From Octopus vulgaris (Eukaryota): a DNA stretch of 64,000 bases. Position numbers and translations under genes: made by a program. Location of the stretch: contig OX597835.1 in NCBI GenBank assembly GCA_951406725.2, positions 4,340,001-4,404,000 on the forward strand, read 5' to 3'. Under the pieces are notes generated by a model. That model did not search any database. It saw only the letters and a program-made list of their open reading frames with translations, and had not been told where the DNA came from. Shown here piece by piece: positions 482 to 60,941 of the stretch (position 1 is the stretch's first letter; the number at the start of each line of letters is the position of its first letter).

Positions 482-533
482 GTCTGTCTGTCTGTCTGCC
501 TGCCTGCCTGCCTGTCTGCCTGCCTGCCTGTCT

Positions 534-578
<45 letters not shown>

Positions 579-869
579 ATGTCTGTCTGTCTGTAAGAGA
601 CACTACCACTCTGGAAATAGCAGTCAAAACTTGACTCTAAAATCTCTTGCTTAAGAACACAACACACAACCAGGTCTGGGAATCGAACTCATTTCCTCAT
701 GATTGTGAGACCGATGCTCTAACTACAAAGCCATGTCCCTTCATATGTGTGTGTGTGTGTGTGTGCATTAAAGCAATGCACCTTCGTCTTCCAAAAGCCA
801 TAAACTGTTACAATGTTCTATTTCTCTCCGCTATAACACAGCAAATTTATTAACTAATTTATTAACTGG

Positions 870-1338
870 GATGATCCGTGGTTGATATCTATAATATATG
901 AACAGATAAAAAAGGGTACTTTGGGTAATGTGGTCCTAGATGGACTGCGCCCAGAACACATAGCTGATCACTCCAGCAGACATGGCTTTCATCTTAGACG
1001 TGTTCGACTGGGTTTGAGTAGAATCTGAAAGACGGAGCAGCGTTTCGTGGCCATGGGTGTATAGACAATACAGAGATATTACTGGTTCCCTGCACACACA
1101 GACACACACACACCAATTGAAGGCATGAACAACACAACATCTTATTCCTAGACTGTAAAAAAACACGAGCAATATTTCACAGTCTTTTGTGAGCGTCGCA
1201 GCTGGTTTCTTTGTTGCGTCCAGAAACAGTCGATTCGCAGAACTGTAGATTTGTTACCTCAAAGACGGCTTCGTTTCTGTTGAAATAGGTGCTGCCACCT
1301 AGTGTAAGTCCATACTTCTACGCAATGTGTTGTCGTAC
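870..1338 (-). mobile_element. Decayed mariner-type transposon fragment
   Basis: Minus ORF 936..1172 reads HGHETLL...KAMSAGVISYVFW, resembling mariner TGDETW...SAGKVMAxVFWD; ends in CGTA at ~1338; interrupted by a (CA)n tract. Confidence 0.5.
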
Positions 1339-1567
1339 AGGGTGGGCGTGAATCATGTATTTATTTGAGATATTATTCAAAAATGGAGGGCAATCCAAAT
1401 TTATGTTTTTTCTTTAACAATGTGTCTCCAGATAATAAAACACAATAAAAATATTTCGCTGGCCGCCATCTTAACAGCCGCCATGTATTTAACCAATGAC
1501 TGTCCTCGCCAATCGTTAATAGTTTTTATGACAACCAGATGCTAGAAAGGAAGGGCGGAAAGGAGAC

Positions 1568-1608
<41 letters not shown>

Positions 1609-1829
1609 CATCACTCCCTCCTCTCTCACTTTTTCTCTCTCTCTCTCCCACCTCTCTATCAAGATATCAGTCTTCACTGCTTGTTACCACGGACAGCTCT
1701 GACATGATTGGGGCTTAGAAGAAGAGTGATATATACTTTTACTACTGTAGGACGTATGCCAGACGAAATACGATTCTCTCTCACTCCTTTATACACACAC
1801 ACAGATACTTATCTATATATATATACTCG

Positions 1830-1873
<44 letters not shown>

Positions 1874-1980
1874 TACAAATACACACGCATCCCAAAATAT
1901 GAATATATATGTGTGTGTGTGCGTGTGTGTGTGCATGAATGAATGTATGTCCGTTTGTATGTATACAAATGCGTATGTAT

Positions 1981-2026
<46 letters not shown>

Positions 2027-2159
2027 CCATCTATCCATCTATCCATCTATCTATCCATCTATCTATCTGTCTGTGTGTGTGTGTCTGTCTGTCTGTCTGT
2101 CTATCTACAAACGCAAACACACACACACACACACACACACACGCACTCATACACGCATA

Positions 2160-2356
2160 TACGAGGTTTTGAGTAAAAGAAAACACAGGAGGATCAATTA
2201 ATTATAATTTTACTCAACATATTCCGCCATCTGATTTACACACTTATTGCAGTGGTCCTTCAGCCATTCTAAGCCCTGCAAAAGAACTTGGAAAGTTAAG
2301 TCTGCAAGCAAGCCTTTCGCGATACACCTAAGGCCAGGAGCTTTTCAGTATCCCGC

Positions 2357-2359
<3 letters not shown>
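2160..2359. mobile_element. Mariner-derived MITE, copy 1 (left TIR partly deleted)
   Basis: TACGAGG...GCCAGGAGCTTTTCAGTATCCCGCGTA, homologous along its length to 20870-21094; TA-flanked. Confidence 0.7.
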
Positions 2360-2413
<54 letters not shown>

Positions 2414-2417
<4 letters not shown>

Positions 2418-2822
2418 GGGGTATTCAAGCTAAATTTCACAGTTTGCAGAAAGGAAAAGAAAGCACAATATCTCAGTGAAAAATAAAAGTATTAAAAAAA
2501 AAATCCCTAAAATATCAACAAGATTATGGCTAGGAGATAACAGTTTACTCAAAGTAACCGCCTCCAGGTTCCATCGCGACTTGAAGACGGTTTCGGAATC
2601 TAGTGCATGCGTTCCTCATCGTGTCTCTAGGAGGGTCTTCGAACGCTGCCTTGATCTAGGCCACCATCTCCGACTTGGTGTTGTAGGGAGAGTGATCGAT
2701 GTCTTACTATGTGCTCCACTCATGGTAATCAATGGGATTACAATCAAGGGGATTAGGAGGCTAAACATTGGGGATGGTGAAATCGAAGAAAATCTCCGAC
2801 AATCACTTCTGACTCTCTTTCA
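2414..2822 (-). mobile_element. Tc1/mariner (maT/DD37D-like) transposase 3' fragment
   Basis: Minus strand reads V*PPNPLDCNPIDYHEWS (cf. WPPNSPDxNPLDYxVW); its terminus (TTCAAGCTAAATTTCACAGTTTGCA) is shared with the copy at 27609. Confidence 0.7.
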
Positions 2823-2829
2823 ATGTATG

Positions 2830-2888
<59 letters not shown>

Positions 2889-3029
2889 TTATATGTATGT
2901 ATGTGTCTGTTCTCCCTTCATCGATACCCCCTCCATCCACACCCCACCTCCTCACATACCACTCCCACATACCCCACATTCTCATCCCAAACCCACACCC
3001 CAACCTCACATACACACACGCATGCGCAC

Positions 3030-3238
3030 CTTCGTTTTGAGATCACGAATACTTTATTATCTCTCCTTCCTAGCTCCCCTGTCTAACTACCTGTTTATTT
3101 CCTCATGTTCCTTTCTGCTGAAGAGCGTAGGCTCAAAAGGTAAAAGACTATCTAACCCTCCCGAGCGTCAAACTAATACACCTGCTTGTTGTTTATACAC
3201 CTGTCTTAATCTTTTATTTTCCTGTAAATTTCAACTAT
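3030..3238 (+). repeat. Hammerhead-bearing dispersed repeat family H1 (PLE pLTR-like), copy 1
   Basis: CTTT-CTGCTGA-A-GAGC-GTAG-GCTC-AAAAG-GTA-AAAG at 3111-3146; downstream CGAGCGTCAAACTAA...CTTGTTGTT...TAAATTTCAACT is shared with the 36568 and 13960 copies. Confidence 0.7.
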
Positions 3239-3249
3239 ATATATATAGA

Positions 3250-3704
3250 GAGAGAGATTCAGATGAATATGGTACTTAAGTTAAAGGCACCAGAATTTAG
3301 TACGGTATTATCCATACAATTTCAAAGTAAGGTGATTAGAATCAAAATAAGCAACAAGGATATCCAGAGGTAATGCAGTACGATCGTTTCATGCAACTCC
3401 ATTTAATTGAACAATGCAATCATTACATCAATTTAAAATGCAGAGCAATCTTCAGCTGTACAAAGACATAGAATTTAATTAAATTACTGGAGTGAGACAG
3501 CATTTTCTTTGTCTATCTCCTTAACATCTTGGAGGTTTTACGTATAATTATTCTAATGTGTCCATCTGTTCTAATTTAATTAAATTCTATGTCTCTGTGC
3601 AGCTCTGCATTATTATATTGATGTAATGATTGCATTGTTCAATAAAATGGAGTTACATGAAACGATCGTACTGCATCACCTCTGGATATCCTTGTTGCTT
3701 ATTT

Positions 3705-3708
<4 letters not shown>
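3250..3708. mobile_element. Inverted-repeat element (Penelope-like inverted pLTRs) containing a hammerhead motif
   Basis: Arms ~3341-3486 and ~3573-3708 are reverse complements; hammerhead core on the minus strand at 3374-3461; a truncated copy of the left flank lies at 57421-57495. Confidence 0.65.
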
Positions 3709-3752
<44 letters not shown>

Positions 3753-3927
3753 ATGTATTTATGCATGTGTGTATGTCTGTATGTATGTATGTATGTATAT
3801 ATATATATATGGATACATATACATATATTGTGCATGTGTATGTGTGTATATATATATATGCATCTATGTATATATGTATTTACAGACAGACACAGATACA
3901 GACACAAGTACACGCGCGCACACACAG

Positions 3928-3958
<31 letters not shown>

Positions 3959-4097
3959 AGATTAAAAGGATCTTTTATCCCTTTCTTTGACAAGATGGAC
4001 ATGGCTCACATGTAATGTGCTGCAATATTAAACAGCCCTTATTCATATTCATGATGTGTAACAGTATCACCGCCATTCTTGGACTTACCATTTAAGT

Positions 4098-4141
<44 letters not shown>

Positions 4142-4222
4142 AGTGGTGGTAAACATACAAAGAAATAGACAGAGACAAATATGTAGCAAAAAGGAAGGAT
4201 ATATATATATATACATATATGC

Positions 4223-4272
<50 letters not shown>

Positions 4273-5044
4273 GTAGAGAGAGAGATACACATAGAGGTAG
4301 AGAGAAGGAGAGAGAGAAACAGAGATAGAGAGAGAGATGATAGTTGAATAAAAACCTTGTCCAATTACTTTTGCACCTGCCAGCTTCTTCTTTTATCCGA
4401 ATGGTTCCTTTGTTTCCAATATTTACCAGTCTGTAATCGTTCCAGTCATCCTATTTAACATTTTTACGTCTTCATTCGTCCATTTTCTCCCTTGCTTGCC
4501 TTTCTTCTCTTGCTAAGGATCTCTTTCTTCCCGCTTTCTCTTTTTCAGCCACCAATCACTTACCAAACAATCCTATGTGCTACCAGAATCTGTGGTTACC
4601 TCTTACTGGGGCAGCGAACAAGAACGGGAAACGGCTGTTACAATAGCCGCTATTTTACGACTTCGTCTCTCCTGACAAACAGCAGCCATATTTGTGAAAT
4701 ATAGCAGCAGAGGTGGTAGCGCTCGCGGGATTATATTTCATTTAAGAACAGGCAAAGGCGGAATTTAAAGAAGGTCGTTTGACAATCATGAGGGTTAGGG
4801 TTGAGGGTGCTAAGTCACACCATGGGAGGCAGTCTTCAGTTATAGCCTACGGTGCTGATGCAAGTTTTCGAAGGGAAGTTTAGTGGACAATAACCAGTAC
4901 CCCGCTTCTCTGTTATACATACATACATACATATGTGTATACATATAGCAATATAAATAATATATAAATATATGCATATATACATACATATATGTACATA
5001 CCTACATATATATGTATATATACGTGCATATGTGGAAACAGGAC

Positions 5045-5260
5045 ATCATAAAAACGTGAATAAAAAGAGAAACGAGAACAACGAAAGAAACAAATATAGA
5101 AACGAGACAGGCAACATAAAGAACATTCCCTTCATCAGTTGTCTCCTGTTCTTTCTACACTGCGTTTCGAAGGTAGGGACAAGACGCGACTTCGTTAAAA
5201 CAGTCCTTCCCGCAAAGCAAATTAAATACAATTTGGGATTTTTTGCAGCGGGTTAAAGTG
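5045..5260 (-). repeat. Dispersed repeat homologous to 51535-51760 (PLE pLTR-like)
   Basis: Reverse complement TTAACCCGCTGCAAAAAATCCCAAATT...GACTGTTTT...AACTGATGAAGGG aligns with TTGACCCGCTATAAATCCTAAATT...AACTGTCTTT...AACTGATGAAGGG at 51537-51660. Confidence 0.55.
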
Positions 5261-5562
5261 ACACACATGCATACATACATACATACATACATACATACAT
5301 ACATACATACATACATACACACATATATATACATACATGTATACATGCATACATACTTACACGCGCTAAACGGCCAACAAAAGAACTTCAATAGAGCTCA
5401 GTGGATCAGAAAACCGACAGAGAAATATGATCGATACAAAATGCAATGTTGCTCAGTCTTCATGCAGTTAACCAGCGCTCTTGGGATTATCCTCATCACA
5501 TCACGTGATTTATAGACGCAGGGATAAAGAGTCGAGTCAAACCTTGTGGTATTTACAATAAA

Positions 5563-5783
5563 GAAGGCGGCGAGCTGGCCGGGCGAAATGCGTAGCCGTA
5601 TTTCGTCTGCCCTTACGTTCTGAGTTCAAATTCCGCCGAGGTCGACTTTGCTTTCATTCTTTCGGGGTCGATTAAATCAGTACCAGTTACGCACTGGGAT
5701 TGATATAATCGACTTAATCCGTTTGTCTGTCCTTGTTTGTCCCCTCTGTGTTTAGCCCCTTGTGGGTAGTAAAGAAATAGGTA
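5563..5783 (+). mobile_element. tRNA-derived SINE, family A
   Basis: GGCGGCGAGCTGG head, B-box GAGTTCAAATTCC, central GTCGACTTTGC..TTCAT..TTTCGGGGTCGAT domain (Meta/Sauria-like from memory); ACAATAAAGAA repeated on both sides. Confidence 0.85.
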
Positions 5784-14672: not shown

Positions 14673-15898
14673 CACAGACATGACTGAAGTAAATAGACAT
14701 ACCATAAAACATCGTTTATGTTTATCATAAAAGGGTTTATATTTTCTTATTAATTGACATCTTTGTTTCGGGTTCTATATGTAACTGTTAAATCCTGCCA
14801 CATACAAAAGAAGCTTTGGAACTGTCTGAATTTCAAAGAGGCCATTCTGTGGATGAATCTGAATTGGGACATAGCGAAAAATTGCAGAAAACCTTGAGAT
14901 CTCGCTTTCACAGTGATTGTGAAAGTCAACAAAGAGGAGAAGGAGTCCACATCACCTCACCCAGGTTAACTACGGCTTTCTGACAGGATCCTTCTCTTTG
15001 TTAAGAGAAGTGTGGAAGATAATCCTCGTTGCAAGGCTCCTAACATAGCAGAACAAGTTGGTCTCAGTCCCAGAACACTGTCAGGCATCTCCATAAACTT
15101 GGCTGTTATGGCAGAGCAGCAAGAAGGAAGTCATTTCTTCAAACATCCAATATAAAGCGGGGAACAACTTGGGCCAGTGAGATGATGGAAAGGCCACTAG
15201 CATTTTGGGACACTGTCATAATCTCCAGTAAGTCCAGATTTGTTGCATTTCCTGACAGTGGTCGAGTGTGGATCTGGAGACTCTGTGATCAAGAATTTGA
15301 TGTGAAAAGATTGCAGCCAACAACGAAACACGGCTGCTATTCTGTGATGGTCTGGGGAACAATTTGGAGAAATGATTGGTCAGATCTGGTAGAGTGTGAG
15401 GGAAGCATAAACTCAGATAAATATGTGTCCATATAGCAGAAAGAACTCCTTCCAATATTCTCCAATGGTGAAATGATTAAAGAAGATTATTTATGGAAGA
15501 TGGGGATCTTTGTAACACGGCTAAAATGACCCGAGGTTTGTTAGATGAAAATGGCATTAAAAAGCTTCCATGGCTAAGCCAGTCACCAGATATGAACCTT
15601 ATCCAACACCTCTGGGACATAATTGACAAGACACTTCATAAAAAGAACAAGAAAGCATCTTCAAAGCCAGATCTTTTGAGATTACTGCATGAAACTTGGC
15701 AAGAAATTCCTCAAGAGACTATTCTTCATCTGATCAGTAAAAAAGCCTAATAGGGTCCTTTCATTGAAAAAATGCAGAGGGCATGTCTACTAAATATGAA
15801 ATATTCTTCTAATAATTAATTAGTAATTTGAATGTATAATTTCTGATTTAAATACACTTTGATTGTATGGGTGTCTATTTACTTCTGTCGTGTCTGTG
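14673..15898 (+). mobile_element. Full-length decayed Tc1 (DD34E-type) transposon
   Basis: TIRs CACAGACATGACTGAAGTAAATAGACAT (14673-14700) and GTGTCTATTTACTTCTGTCGTGTCTGTG (15871-15898), 25/28 match; right end followed by TA. Confidence 0.9.
14790..15800 (+). pseudogene. Tc1-like transposase pseudogene
   Basis: Motifs ELSEFQRG, VIISSKSRF, SVMVWG, MEDG and WLSQSPDMNLIQHLW, spread over frameshifts and stops (ORFs 15182..15436, 15493..15750). Confidence 0.9.
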
Positions 15899-41432: not shown

Positions 41433-41977
41433 AATAATAATAGATCTTCAACCTCTCCATCTTGTTTCGACAAATACGCCTCTTCAATGTACTGTTCACG
41501 TTTAAAGGCAAAATTTGGTAATTGTTGTACAGATCGGAAAGAAAGCCAAGCAGTAATAAAACGGAATGTAATTATTTCGAGGAATCAGTTAAAATATTAT
41601 AGTGTTTCAGTTAATTAATTAAATGTTTTGCGACTATGCAAACTGGAGCAAAACAAACGACTTCTATTCTGTATACTGTTAATTAGCATCAATTACTATA
41701 TTGTCTTTGAAGTCGATCTCTGATGAAGCAGCTAAAACAACTGAGATTGGTGAGGCCAATCTACAGGTGATGGCCACAGAGACGAATTGGTGTAAGAGCA
41801 ACACTTAGTTCTCACAACGTGGCTGAAACTGAGTTGACCAAAATCACAAACGTGTGCTTATCTAAACGCCGTCGATTGCTAAGCTAATGCACACACACAC
41901 ACATGCACACACACAAACACACATACACACACACACACACACACAGACACACACATGAGGAGCCTCCGAACGAGGTG

Positions 41978-42398
41978 CTTCACATTGTCGTGCAGCTACC
42001 GTTTATACCTCATTCAGAGATTTATTATTGTTTGTTTACACTTTTTCGAGATCAGTGACTTTTCGTCACCGGAAAAAGGATAAATGTATTTGCATTGAGA
42101 GCCACTTCGCATCGAAGATCGGTGATTGTCGTGCGCTGACGACGGGTAAATACTCAGAAACCCGGGTCCGTGCGTATCACGTCAGGTCGACGATGGGATG
42201 GATGGCTTCCCTTTGCAAATACTGATAGAGCACAGAAAGTATGTCAATAGCCAGCTGGAGAAGATGTTCTCCTGGGGCTACAAGCTACAGTAGCATTCAC
42301 CTTTAGTGGTTAGCCACATTTAAGTGGCAAATATACTTCACATTGTCGTGCAGCTACTGTTTATACCTCGTTCAGAGATTTATTATTGTATGTATACA
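41978..42398 (+). mobile_element. Candidate non-LTR retrozyme / PLE-type partial tandem (358-nt unit, 1.18 copies)
   Basis: 63-bp direct repeats 41978-42040 and 42336-42398 (59/63 identical) enclose a non-coding, heavily base-paired sequence with a hammerhead. Confidence 0.65.
42122..42180 (+). ncRNA. Type I hammerhead ribozyme motif
   Basis: Stem I GTGAT..CGTGCG / CGTGCG.ATCAC; core CTGACGA (42136-42142); stem II GGGT-AAAT-ACTC; GAAA (42157-42160); palindromic stem III ACCCGGGT; GUC cleavage triplet ending at 42168. Confidence 0.7.
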
Positions 42399-42957
42399 TT
42401 GATAGATATATATATATACATACATATATACATATATGTGTGTGTGTGTGCTCATGTGTGTGTGTGTGTGTGGACTCATGGGAATGTTAGTTAACGCTAG
42501 TATGTAATCCTATTCTATAAAATTCATCTGAGGATGTAACTGAACGAAACCAGCAACCAGCAACCAGCCGACGATTCTGATCAGTCGAACAAGCCAAGCC
42601 GTCTATTTGTCTGTCTGCCTGCCTGCATGCCTGTCTGTCTGTCTGTCAGCCGGGCACTCAGTGAGGCAACTAAGCGGAAAGCTACCTAAACTGTAATCTT
42701 TATCAAGAGTAGACAGTTGTAGAATCCTGCTAACTAATCTGTATATTAATAGTTTATAGAGTTATTAATCTTTAGACATGTGTGTGTTGCATATTTATAT
42801 TTTCAACTAAGCAACGTGGATATATAAATAGTTGGGGGATTTAAAACTGTTATTATTCTGATAAGATGACACCATACGTTGGATAAAAGACTATGAGTGT
42901 TTAGAAAACGGGGTACATGATGCCAGGGAAACAGTATATATACATACATACATACAC

Positions 42958-47008: not shown

Positions 47009-47059
47009 CATTATTTAAGACGTCATACAGTATCCAATATCGTTATGTTGTAGATTGAA

Positions 47060-49140
47060 ATTAATGTGTCTACCGGGGTTTTGCACGGTCTATCAAGTCT
47101 TTTTAGCCGGTTTAAATGTCTTTTGTGTTCCCATTTTCCGCCTCTTATCATATATGTCATTTTGCCTATTTTTTTTGTTAATATTCCGTCTTCCCAACCT
47201 TGTCTTCCATTTTCATATGTTTTGAAAAACACCTTGTCATCGATATTAAAATGTTTTGTCGTATATTTGGTGTTTTCCCTTTTTGTTTTTCCTTCTAGGA
47301 ACAGCTTGGCAAAAATTGACTTTATTTTTCGAGCAAACCTTAGTTCCATAGGCGAATTGCATGAAAATGTGTTTGGATTTGGTGTTATCCTATAAACCCT
47401 CAAGAATTGTGTCAATGCTGCATCGTCGACTTTTTTAATTTCTTTAATGCTCTTTTTAATGTATTCGCGCACCTTTCCGCTTGCCCGTTTGATCTTGGGT
47501 GATACGGAGGAGTAGTGATATGTTCAACTGAGTACGTCTTGCAAAATTTTTTTAATTCATTCGCCGTGAATTGTGTACTGTTATGGGAGACTATGGTATC
47601 TGGGATACCGGACATAGCAAAAAGCTCATGTAGAAATAGCACTGTTAATGTGGGTGTCGGTTTTCGACATTTACACATTTCTGGCCATTTTGTAAAGCTA
47701 TCTACCACAATTAGATAACATGATCGGTTTAACGGTCTTCCGAAGTCTATGTGTAGCCTGGACCATGGAATATCGGTCTTGGGCTAAGGTTGGAATTTTA
47801 TAGGTGGTGATTTCGCTGCAGGATTTTACCAACTTCACGATATCTCAATCAATTTTTGGCCAGTAAACATAACTTCTCATAAGCGACTTCATCCTAGAAA
47901 TTCCTGGATGTCCAGTGTGGAATTCCTTTAACAGTCGACCTTGTAGTGACGAAGGCATTACAACCATCTGAGCATACATAAGCACATTATCACATATCGA
48001 ATACAAATTCGAAACTGTGTTACATCCAACCACACGTACATTTTTGTTTCTTCTGACCTCACTACTTTAAAACAGTTTTATGATAAACTCATCCGTCTCT
48101 GCCGTAATTTTTATTTCCTCCAACGTCACAGGTAATTCACGCACAATATTGCACAATATATTTTTAACTTCATTTTCGGCTTTTAACGCTGCTATCACTG
48201 TGTTCTTCTAGTGGTTCACTGTATTCTGTTATTCATCTTGACAAGCCATCTGCATGTTGCAATTTTTTCGATGGCAAATTCTCCATTTTGAAGTCGTAAT
48301 TCAGTAGGATCGTTCCCCATCGCCGCAATCTGTCGGTTGTATGTCTTGAAATATCGACAGTATTGGGCGGTGGTTTGTCTGCAGACAGAACCTTCTTCCA
48401 TGTATAAATTTATGAAAGTGCTTTACCGCAAATATGATGGCTAATGCCCCTTTTTCTATTTGACTGTAACTTTTCTCAGCCGGCAATAATGAATGCGAAA
48501 CAAAAGCTACTGCTTTCAGGCTACCATCTTCATATTTGTGCAAAATCACAGCTCTAACATCACTTTCACTAGCATCTGCTGCCATTACTATTTCTAATTT
48601 CAGGTCAAAATGTGATAACGACAGTTCCGAGGTTAAGACGTTTTTAATTTATTCAAAAACTTTTTGGCATTTAATAGAAATATTAAAATTACTAAGTCTC
48701 TATAAAAGAGATTATGGCAGCGTTTACTGGAAATTAATTGTTATCGCCATATTAATATGGCATTCTTATAGATATAAGAATAATCGCTGCCGGGCAATAC
48801 CCCGAAACGCGTCTGTAGCTGTCGGACTGGCAGTGTGAAGCGGCTGACCTCCCTTGTTCGAAGGTTATAATGGATACAGATCGTGTATCAATAGCTATCT
48901 TGATGGCGGTGGCCTCATGGAGCTGACCAGCGGCAGCGATTATTCTTATATCTATAAGAATGCCATATTAATATGGCGATAACAATTAATTTTTGGCATT
49001 TGTCTGACTAAATCAACTTAACGTCTTTTTTTAAACAATTTATTCAAGGTTGCTCTTAAATCGTGCATATTCGGTATGTAGAACTAGTAGTAATTTGCGA
49101 GCCCCAAGAATGCTTGTAACGTTATAATGTTTTTCGGGTA
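47060..49140 (-). pseudogene. Ty3/Gypsy pol relic (RT end, RNase H, integrase)
   Basis: Minus-strand motifs AFLGLANYY*FYIPNM, AADASE..AVI.H, EKSYSQIEKGALAIIFAVKHFH, HTGHPGISRMKSLMRSYVYWP, VDSFTKWPE, TPPYHPRSNGQAER, FLRVYRITP; many stops and frameshifts; no LTRs seen. Confidence 0.93.
48673..48989. mobile_element. Penelope-like insertion with internal inverted repeat, nested in the Gypsy relic
   Basis: 12-bp TSD TTTTTGGCATTT (48661-48672 and 48990-49001); ~61-bp perfect inverted repeat 48732-48792 / 48932-48992; half hammerhead at 48792-48813; homologous to 59590-59818. Confidence 0.75.
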
Positions 49141-59978: not shown

Positions 59979-60941
59979 ATGGAGGTAGTTGAATGCAGAT
60001 CAGTAATCAAGTTCTTATACTTGAAAGGTCGTACACCAAAAGAGAGGTTTGATGAGATGAAAGGAGTTTATGATGACGATGCACCATCATACAGTATAGT
60101 CAAACACTGGCATCGCTAGTTCAAATGTGGTCGGATATCGGTGGTATCTGCTCCTATTCCGGGATGACCACATTCCACCATTGATGATGACAGCATCCAT
60201 AAAGTAAACACCACCATTTTGGAGGATCGCCGCATAACTATTCGACAAATAGTCCAAGAAGTGAAGGACCCGTGGAAAATATCATTCATCCCATTTCCAC
60301 ATGCGGAAGTTGTCTGTACGATGGATTCCTCAGATGTTCACAGCTTTTCAGAAGCAGGAATGAGTTAATTGCCCCCAGGATCTTTTGGCAATGTGCCAAG
60401 AAAACGAGGAAGTCTTTTTCGGCAGACTTATCACACAGATCCTGGGACTAAAGTCCAGTCGAAGCAATGGAAGCATGATAATTTACCACCTCCAAAGTAG
60501 GCTCATGATGCTCAAAGTCTTTCGGGACCAGTGCGAAGTAGCGATGATGGATTATCTAGAAAAGGGCACCACAATTAACCGGGCTAGCATGCTGACCAAA
60601 GCAGAGAGGCATGGCATGCTAACCAAAGGAGACTGCATGCTCCAAGACAAAGTCCCCGTTTACAATGCACATGTTGCCCAGATGAAAGCACACTCCTGCG
60701 GCTATGAAATTCTTCCTCACCCCCCTTACTCTCCTGACCTCGCACCACCTGACTTCAACCTCTTTCCAACTATGAAGTCTTTTTGAAAGGAAAGCACTTT
60801 TCGGATGATGAACTTATTTCCGGGGTAAAATCTTAGTTCCAGATGCAACCTACCGACTTCTACAGACGAGGTGTTCACAGCTGCATAAAGCGATGGAGGA
60901 AGTGTATCATCCTTGATGGTGGGTATGTAGAGAAGGACTAA
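59979..60941 (+). pseudogene. Mariner transposase pseudogene
   Basis: MEVVECRSVIKFLYLKGRTPKE... HPPYSPDLAPPDFNLF ... GGYVEKD*; several stops and frameshifts; right TIR ...TAATAAACACCCCTCGTA ends at 61013. Confidence 0.92.

Follow-up and report, generated by a model that had tools for sequence, protein, structure and literature searches.

An isolated copy of a non-coding 358-nt hammerhead unit in Octopus vulgaris, probably a high-copy animal retrozyme with insertion ends of Penelope-like type

Canonical metazoan hammerheads that cleave as dimers are described as possessing helices of 6, 4 and 1-2 bp and a palindromic loop (PMC4209133). The pair 10.1-11.1 at the base of stem II is counted among the most conserved of all hammerhead pairs (PMC3088659), and U·U is reported to occur there naturally and to be active (PMC3088659; PMC7229834). 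With regard to animal retrozymes, one of nine Xenopus dimers is stated to have cleaved in vitro while eight did not (bioRxiv 2026.07.22.740005). For Penelope-like elements (PLEs), the characteristic traits given are partial tandems, a 5' copy that is inverted and truncated, a tail of 30-40 bp and microsatellite targets (PMC8557442; PMC3846280). According to one biochemical account, a PLE protein in purified form nicks both strands and extends them, and it initiates cDNA within the RNA at two sites that lie downstream of the hammerhead and bound the tail; uncleaved RNA is its main substrate (PMC11167929). Among cephalopods, 235 Hammerhead_1 loci have been counted in the giant squid genome (PMC6962438), and we found no description of a cephalopod retrozyme family in the open-access literature.

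The locus studied here lies within a window of 64,000 nt, the whole stretch of Octopus vulgaris DNA that was analysed, and its features are compiled in Table 1. An initial annotation had proposed a structured hammerhead unit present as a 1.18-mer. The two 63-bp direct repeats that it listed do exist at an offset of 358 nt (59/63 identical, BLAST E 2e-22), with no further copy elsewhere in the 64-kb window, and every one of its hammerhead motifs, four nested helix arms and three hairpins was recovered in its place. The last ten letters of the second repeat match the first at eight positions (P about 0.003) and also resemble the flanking TATG/TACA microsatellite, so that the true right end is to be sought between 42388 and 42398. 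In agreement with the claim that recognisable coding content is missing, none of the three ORFs tested in or overlapping the unit had a Pfam match; length and GC content likewise fall within the range of retrozymes (150-450 bp non-coding, GC under 50%).

Table 1. Coordinates of features at and around the locus (positions within the 64-kb window).
Feature	Position	Strand	Remarks
(CA)n microsatellite, left target DNA	41886..41954	.	sequence
Short inverted segment from the tail region of the unit	41955..41977	-	core 41964-41976 matches 42365-42377
First direct repeat	41978..42040	+	5'-truncated start of second pass through unit
Non-coding unit, 358 nt, 44% GC	41978..42335	+	joint 42335 -> 41978 in 4/4 runs
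Hairpin GUGAC/GUCAC	42054..42070	+	pair probability 0.998
Rod of nested helices bearing the hammerhead	42086..42222	+	base helix conserved, middle varies between subfamilies
Type I hammerhead	42122..42180	+	predicted cut after C42168
Self-complementary 8-mer ACCCGGGT	42160..42167	+	8-bp stem III in double hammerhead
Hairpin	42248..42280	+	pair 42261:42268 A-U here, often G-C or G·U in other copies
Hairpin GCCAC/GUGGC	42313..42328	+	just before first 3'-end cluster; pair probability 0.999
Second direct repeat, holding PLE-type tail	42336..42398	+	tail lies between the two clusters of 3' ends
TA/TACA/TG microsatellite, right target DNA	42399..42472	.	sequence
Integrase remnant, two frames	47023..47783	-	Pfam rve, E 5e-11; probably decayed LTR retrotransposon
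Tc1/mariner-type transposase remnants, weak	15044..15436 and 60364..60786	+	HTH_Tnp_Tc3_2 E 0.004; DDE_3 E 0.003; both below cut-off

The hammerhead located between the repeats exhibits the complete type I core (C3-U-G-A-N-G-A9, G12-A-A-A15.1 and U16.1-H17, flanked by stems I to III) in the form of CTGACGA (42136-42142), GAAA (42157-42160) and GTC (42166-42168). Stem I proper, absent from the initial list, comprises 42130-42135/42169-42174 (6 bp, two of them G·U) and is followed by an internal loop and 5 bp formed by 42122-42126/42176-42180. The four pairs of stem II (42144-42147/42152-42155) stand on a C42143·A42156 mismatch, with a G-C pair directly next to it, instead of the standard pair closing this stem at 10.1-11.1. 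Stem III consists of 2 bp with a CCGG loop and is contained in the palindrome. The resulting helix sizes of 6, 4 and 2 bp and the palindromic loop are those of the canonical metazoan class cleaving as dimers. A type I descriptor scan of both strands of the 64 kb gave this single match, and 2 of 100 shuffled windows yielded a descriptor match with a 6-bp stem I. The type I hammerhead claimed earlier is borne out by its motif positions and its conservation in other copies, while the search of Rfam that had been suggested returned no hammerhead at E values up to 10, neither among 64 matches over 5 kb nor among two matches over 301 bp. The locus carries one complete hammerhead and is a solo copy; release of a unit-length RNA from it is therefore impossible, and it constitutes a dead-end product rather than a source.

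The stretch is present in 20 of the 24 listed public runs, under five organism labels, and eight of the 24 were aligned to it (run and organism labels are coded, here X and A to E). The aligned contigs number 5777 (X1), 5377 (X4), 659 (X12) and 80 (X19) over 41957-42345 as well as 1222 (X2), 1246 (X6), 988 (X8) and 533 (X9) over 41957-42200, and summed depth over the hammerhead exceeds that of the unique left flank by a factor of about 500-1600, a crude ratio that is not a copy number. In all four runs able to show it, contigs step back by 358 nt at the head-to-tail joint 42335 -> 41978 (7, 8, 5 and 1 contigs), some of which may in DNA runs derive from the locus itself; the same joint occurs in two runs guessed to be RNA that have no depth on the left flank of the locus. 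With 533-5,777 contigs per DNA-type run and recurrent junctions, the sequence belongs, as the initial annotation had supposed, to a repeat family with tandem copies and is not single-copy. The letters preceding 41978 in other copies are the unit's own 3' part in eight of eight runs, which identifies 41978 as a truncation point and not as a fixed end. No contig spanning two hammerheads, or the whole stretch, was seen among those aligned and listed for the eight runs. None of the listed runs bearing the stretch is recorded as RNA; the two runs guessed to be RNA, which may be DNA and are not taken as evidence of transcription, contain contigs of the family, among them the tandem junction and some that cross the cut site. 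A pattern scan for family copies gave zero hits each in metagenome contigs, viral contigs and prokaryote genomes. Summed depth over 42200-42342 is roughly tenfold that over the hammerhead arm, which may reflect either many truncated copies or a 3' part common to several families.

Compared with the bulk of the depth, the locus differs at about 10 positions within 42008-42307, i.e., roughly 3%, none of them in the hammerhead. Depth over its left insertion junction is found in X1, X2 (both organism A) and X4 (B) but is zero in X6, X8 and X9 (C, D and E), a blank that is not proof of absence. The divergence and the presence of the junction in organisms A and B indicate an older insertion. With regard to the accessory helices, most other copies contain one additional pair (U at 42070) in the hairpin 42054-42070, the loop of which is inverted in some; in X6 and X12 the 5-nt loop within 42055-42069 appears in this inverted form, a micro-inversion typical of template switching. 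Among the listed loose ends, those at 42105 and 42198 fall within the rod of nested helices. The pairing GAGCCA/UGGCUU, put forward as one of its arms, is not supported as a family helix, as all five listed variants, which are common in other copies, break it.

The mismatch beneath stem II had been taken as a sign that this particular copy is impaired. Private damage is rejected: C42143 accounts for about 90-96% of the depth in X2, X6 and X8, three different organisms, and A for 75% in a fourth (X9), which creates A·A. The mismatch at the base of stem II is a family trait. As the pair at this position is so widely conserved, cleavage may be slowed or abolished by C·A or A·A. Among the variants listed for the eight runs, N7 is the sole variable core position (C42140U, 13-66%), and a further 42 variants in X1, X4, X12 and X19 and 12 in X2, X6, X8 and X9 may include G or C changes in the core; the tallies leave no room for an additional core A change at 5% or more in X6, X8 and X9 and contain no additional core T change in X2, X6, X8 and X9. 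Conservation of the core across five organism labels while N7 varies suggests selection for cleavage.

Variation in the stems mostly maintains pairing. U42154C (24-90%) converts a G·U into a G-C pair, and C42134U, C42153U and C42173U turn stem pairs into wobbles; G42135A, found at 4-7% in three runs, breaks a pair of stem I. In organism E (X9), C42162U (36%) and G42165A (26%) occur within the palindrome, their linkage not being visible in the table. Together, these two changes would keep the 8-mer self-complementary, and the pair in question can form only between two hammerheads. Covariation, which had been named as a means of checking the structure, was judged from per-position tables that show no linkage: most stem variants preserve pairs; G42135A and the variants of GAGCCA/UGGCUU do not. 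RNA editing as the cause of the excess of A>G and T>C relative to other copies was set aside, both directions occurring on one strand.

For the circularised 358-mer, a minimum of -105.5 kcal/mol was predicted (z -3.2; 1 of 100 shuffles as low); the opposite strand folds better (z -4.4; 0 of 100), so that stability is not strand-specific. In the predicted circle the catalytic core is paired off and the active shape does not form: the pairs of active stems II and III have a probability of 0.0 and those of stem I of 0.11-0.13. For the monomer, the models predict a block in which 42143-42147 pairs with 42160-42164 (probability 1.0), with the active fold 11.8 kcal/mol above the minimum. A lone hammerhead is thus predicted to fold shut, its palindrome pairing with the stem II strand and blocking the core, although the models ignore tertiary contacts and the shut monomer is a prediction only. 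The double hammerhead was calculated at -40.3 kcal/mol, not far from the -43.2 of two shut monomers and the -46.6 of the best dimer fold.

Information on the mode of insertion comes from the ends of the copies. Among the loose ends listed (24 of 698 for X1, X4, X12 and X19 and 24 of 500 for the other runs), copies stop at two places, behind 42342 (25, 10 and 3 contigs in X1, X12 and X19) and behind 42028/42030/42033 (16, 22 and 12 contigs in X6, X8 and X2, respectively). These clusters are 44-49 nt apart on the unit, the outer one being equivalent to about 42386-42391, and the sequence that follows both is AT-rich and of low agreement. At 42029, depth drops by half in X2, X6 and X8 and hardly at all in X9. 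The copy at the locus ends at 42388-42398, at or just past the outer cluster, and its two ends both lie near the outer site, while a PLE tail is usually found at one end only. A depth trough at 42087-42112 was considered as truncation at the cut site and rejected, as it is confounded by subfamily divergence. Other copies show recurrent, differing continuations behind 42082 and 42320, which may represent sister subfamilies or a link to a partner Penelope sharing the tail.

On its left side, the locus copy is preceded by a short inverted piece, noticed after the fact, with a 12/13 match; of 3000 non-simple 23-mers drawn at random from the window, 17 reach as much. A weak extension of the piece (16/22) leads to the equivalent of unit position 42028, i.e., to the outer cluster. 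No target-site duplication was seen at the insertion, and a poly(A) tail is absent. The motif CACACATGAG at 41950-41959, left of the element, and its reverse complement at 42451-42460, 53 nt to the right of the element, each occur once in the 64 kb and form a 21/22 inverted match together with the adjoining CA/TG runs; possibly, this reflects target DNA copied in inverse during insertion, or chance, and it is a rival to the inverted left piece in its longer version. Taken as a whole, the locus is a 5'-truncated partial tandem with an inverted, albeit short, 5' piece in a microsatellite target, as in PLE insertions.

The initial annotation had treated a retrozyme and a PLE pLTR as alternatives. 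This opposition is not supported, since the listed 3' ends cluster at two places as in PLEs and since animal retrozymes have been described as non-autonomous PLE derivatives (bioRxiv 2026.07.22.740005). No Pfam match to a reverse transcriptase (RT) or GIY-YIG domain was obtained for 44 ORFs from 39.4-45.7 kb, out of 104 in total, simple-repeat and more distant ORFs being mostly set aside. Thus, the locus does not present RT and GIY-YIG ORFs between pLTRs as an autonomous PLE would. The nearest Pfam-supported mobile gene is the integrase remnant, about 5 kb away.

We consider it likely that a high-copy, non-coding animal non-LTR retrozyme of 358 nt is represented at the locus by one isolated copy, probably inserted by a Penelope-like RT/endonuclease acting in trans. 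Tandem arrays elsewhere would be transcribed in the plus sense, and two hammerheads would pair via the palindromic stem III and cut, a lone hammerhead staying shut. Ligation of the unit-length RNA would produce a circle. A PLE enzyme would then nick the microsatellite in trans and prime cDNA internally on the RNA, at the outer of the fixed sites (about 42390); synthesis would cross the cut site, still intact, continue beyond the start site again and end after 421 nt. A second priming on the other strand is likely to have left the inverted piece of 13-22 nt. As to the template, a circular RNA and an uncleaved linear multimer appear about equally probable. The deduction that a 1.18-mer implies a circle cannot be upheld, because a PLE RT starting internally on uncleaved linear tandem RNA would, as can be gathered from PMC11167929, leave an identical scar; the 1.18-mer is thus no proof of a circular template.

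The most serious alternative is nested in this explanation and differs in the template only: a PLE RT primed internally on an uncleaved linear tandem transcript would have stopped after 1.18 units, and the hammerhead may be weak or protein-assisted, without any role in mobility. We regard this as quite possible, if somewhat less likely than not. The reported preference of PLE RT for unprocessed RNA in vitro and the normal insertion of hammerhead mutants (PMC11167929) point in its direction, as do the tandem junctions in DNA runs and the predicted shut monomer, while conservation of the core alongside a variable N7 argues against it. A further point concerns 42031/42389, where both repeats carry T and C makes up 95-99% of the depth. 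The common T fits a single template unit, which counts against this alternative without being decisive, since a homogeneous array or letters derived from the target would also explain it.

A more elaborate version of the circular route would involve a built-in switch. The kept mismatch and a stem II strand identical to one half of the palindrome would lock monomer and circle, palindrome pairing would open the multimer, and Penelope RT would copy the protected circle from two fixed internal sites. This proposal is tentative and in our view rather doubtful. If it were true, it would explain how animal retrozyme circles escape self-cutting and would show an RT running round a circle directly.

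We deem it unlikely that the locus is the stump, i.e., pLTR plus tail, of an autonomous Penelope-like element and not a free-standing unit. The apparently fixed ends and the inverted piece are of PLE type, and the continuations behind 42082 (19-39 contigs in five runs) and 42320 (9-17 contigs in two runs) among the listed loose ends could lead into a PLE body. On the other hand, a 358-nt period separates the tails and no ORF gave a match, the best-supported upstream continuation is the unit's own 3' part in all eight runs, just 1-4% of the aligned contigs in six DNA-type runs continue unlike the stretch, and PLE hammerheads are described as usually minimal (PMC4209133; PMC7229834), in contrast to the canonical one found here. 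The element could also be a satellite or SINE-like repeat that recombination or LINE machinery has dispersed, its 63-bp repeats being a local duplication and its hammerhead a relic without activity. This reading would be in keeping with the missing Rfam match and PLE partner and is nevertheless highly improbable in view of the 358-nt junction recurring in independent copies, the two apparently fixed 3' ends, the lack of a poly(A) tail and target-site duplication, and the pair-preserving variation of the hammerhead.

From the original retrozyme proposal, the high-copy non-coding unit, the conserved hammerhead, the tandem junctions and the lack of an RT gene are retained, whereas the inference of a circle, the concern about the C·A mismatch and the opposition to PLEs are not. 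Judged by the testable sequence criteria, the family fits the animal non-LTR retrozymes, a known kind, and is not an autonomous PLE. The copy at the locus is itself an inert scar. The dependence of retrozymes on Penelope-like elements has so far been proposed from co-occurrence and pLTR homology, to which the family adds evidence from insertion ends. It also offers a natural hammerhead variant that is missed by Rfam, with C·A/A·A conserved at a position that hardly ever varies, and a simple test of the idea that monomers are shut and dimers active.

Metazoan non-LTR retrozymes as characterized in PMC7229834, e.g., those of mussels (350-390 bp) and Rtz_353 of the axolotl with its hammerhead HHR_Amex2, are likewise non-coding, have a GC content under 50% and are arranged head to tail. 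Shared features include a canonical type I hammerhead with a 2-bp stem III and tetraloop and a predicted circle that is self-paired. The octopus locus deviates by possessing one hammerhead only. In the same account, most metazoan circles leave the core free, some mussel ones excepted, while the core of the octopus circle is predicted to be blocked. HHR_Amex2 is also mismatched at the foot of stem II, by U·U as compared to C·A or A·A in the present family, and its cleavage is described as better in dimeric form. The portrayal of retrozymes as PLE derivatives by Li, Clavereau and Pollet (2026, bioRxiv 10.64898/2026.07.22.740005) agrees with our findings in the link to PLEs and in dispersed solo "monomer" copies being inactive offspring, as is the case here. 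Their argument, as laid out in that preprint, is derived from co-occurrence and pLTR homology in 31 vertebrates, three insects and a coral, with no mollusc among them, while ours is derived from insertion ends.

Endonuclease-bearing PLEs (PMC8557442; PMC3846280), including Poseidon PAc (PMC11167929), share the 5'-truncated partial tandem, the inverted 5' piece and an AT-rich or microsatellite target with the octopus insertion. The 3'-end clusters on either side of the tail would be a further likeness to the pair of start sites known from PLEs (PMC11167929), although the tail measures 44-49 nt in the present family as opposed to the published 30-40 nt. The octopus unit differs from these elements in the absence of an RT-GIY-YIG ORF, in a period of 358 nt instead of kilobases and in a canonical instead of a minimal hammerhead. 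What is distinctive here is the conserved C·A/A·A mismatch in combination with a fold that is predicted to block itself.
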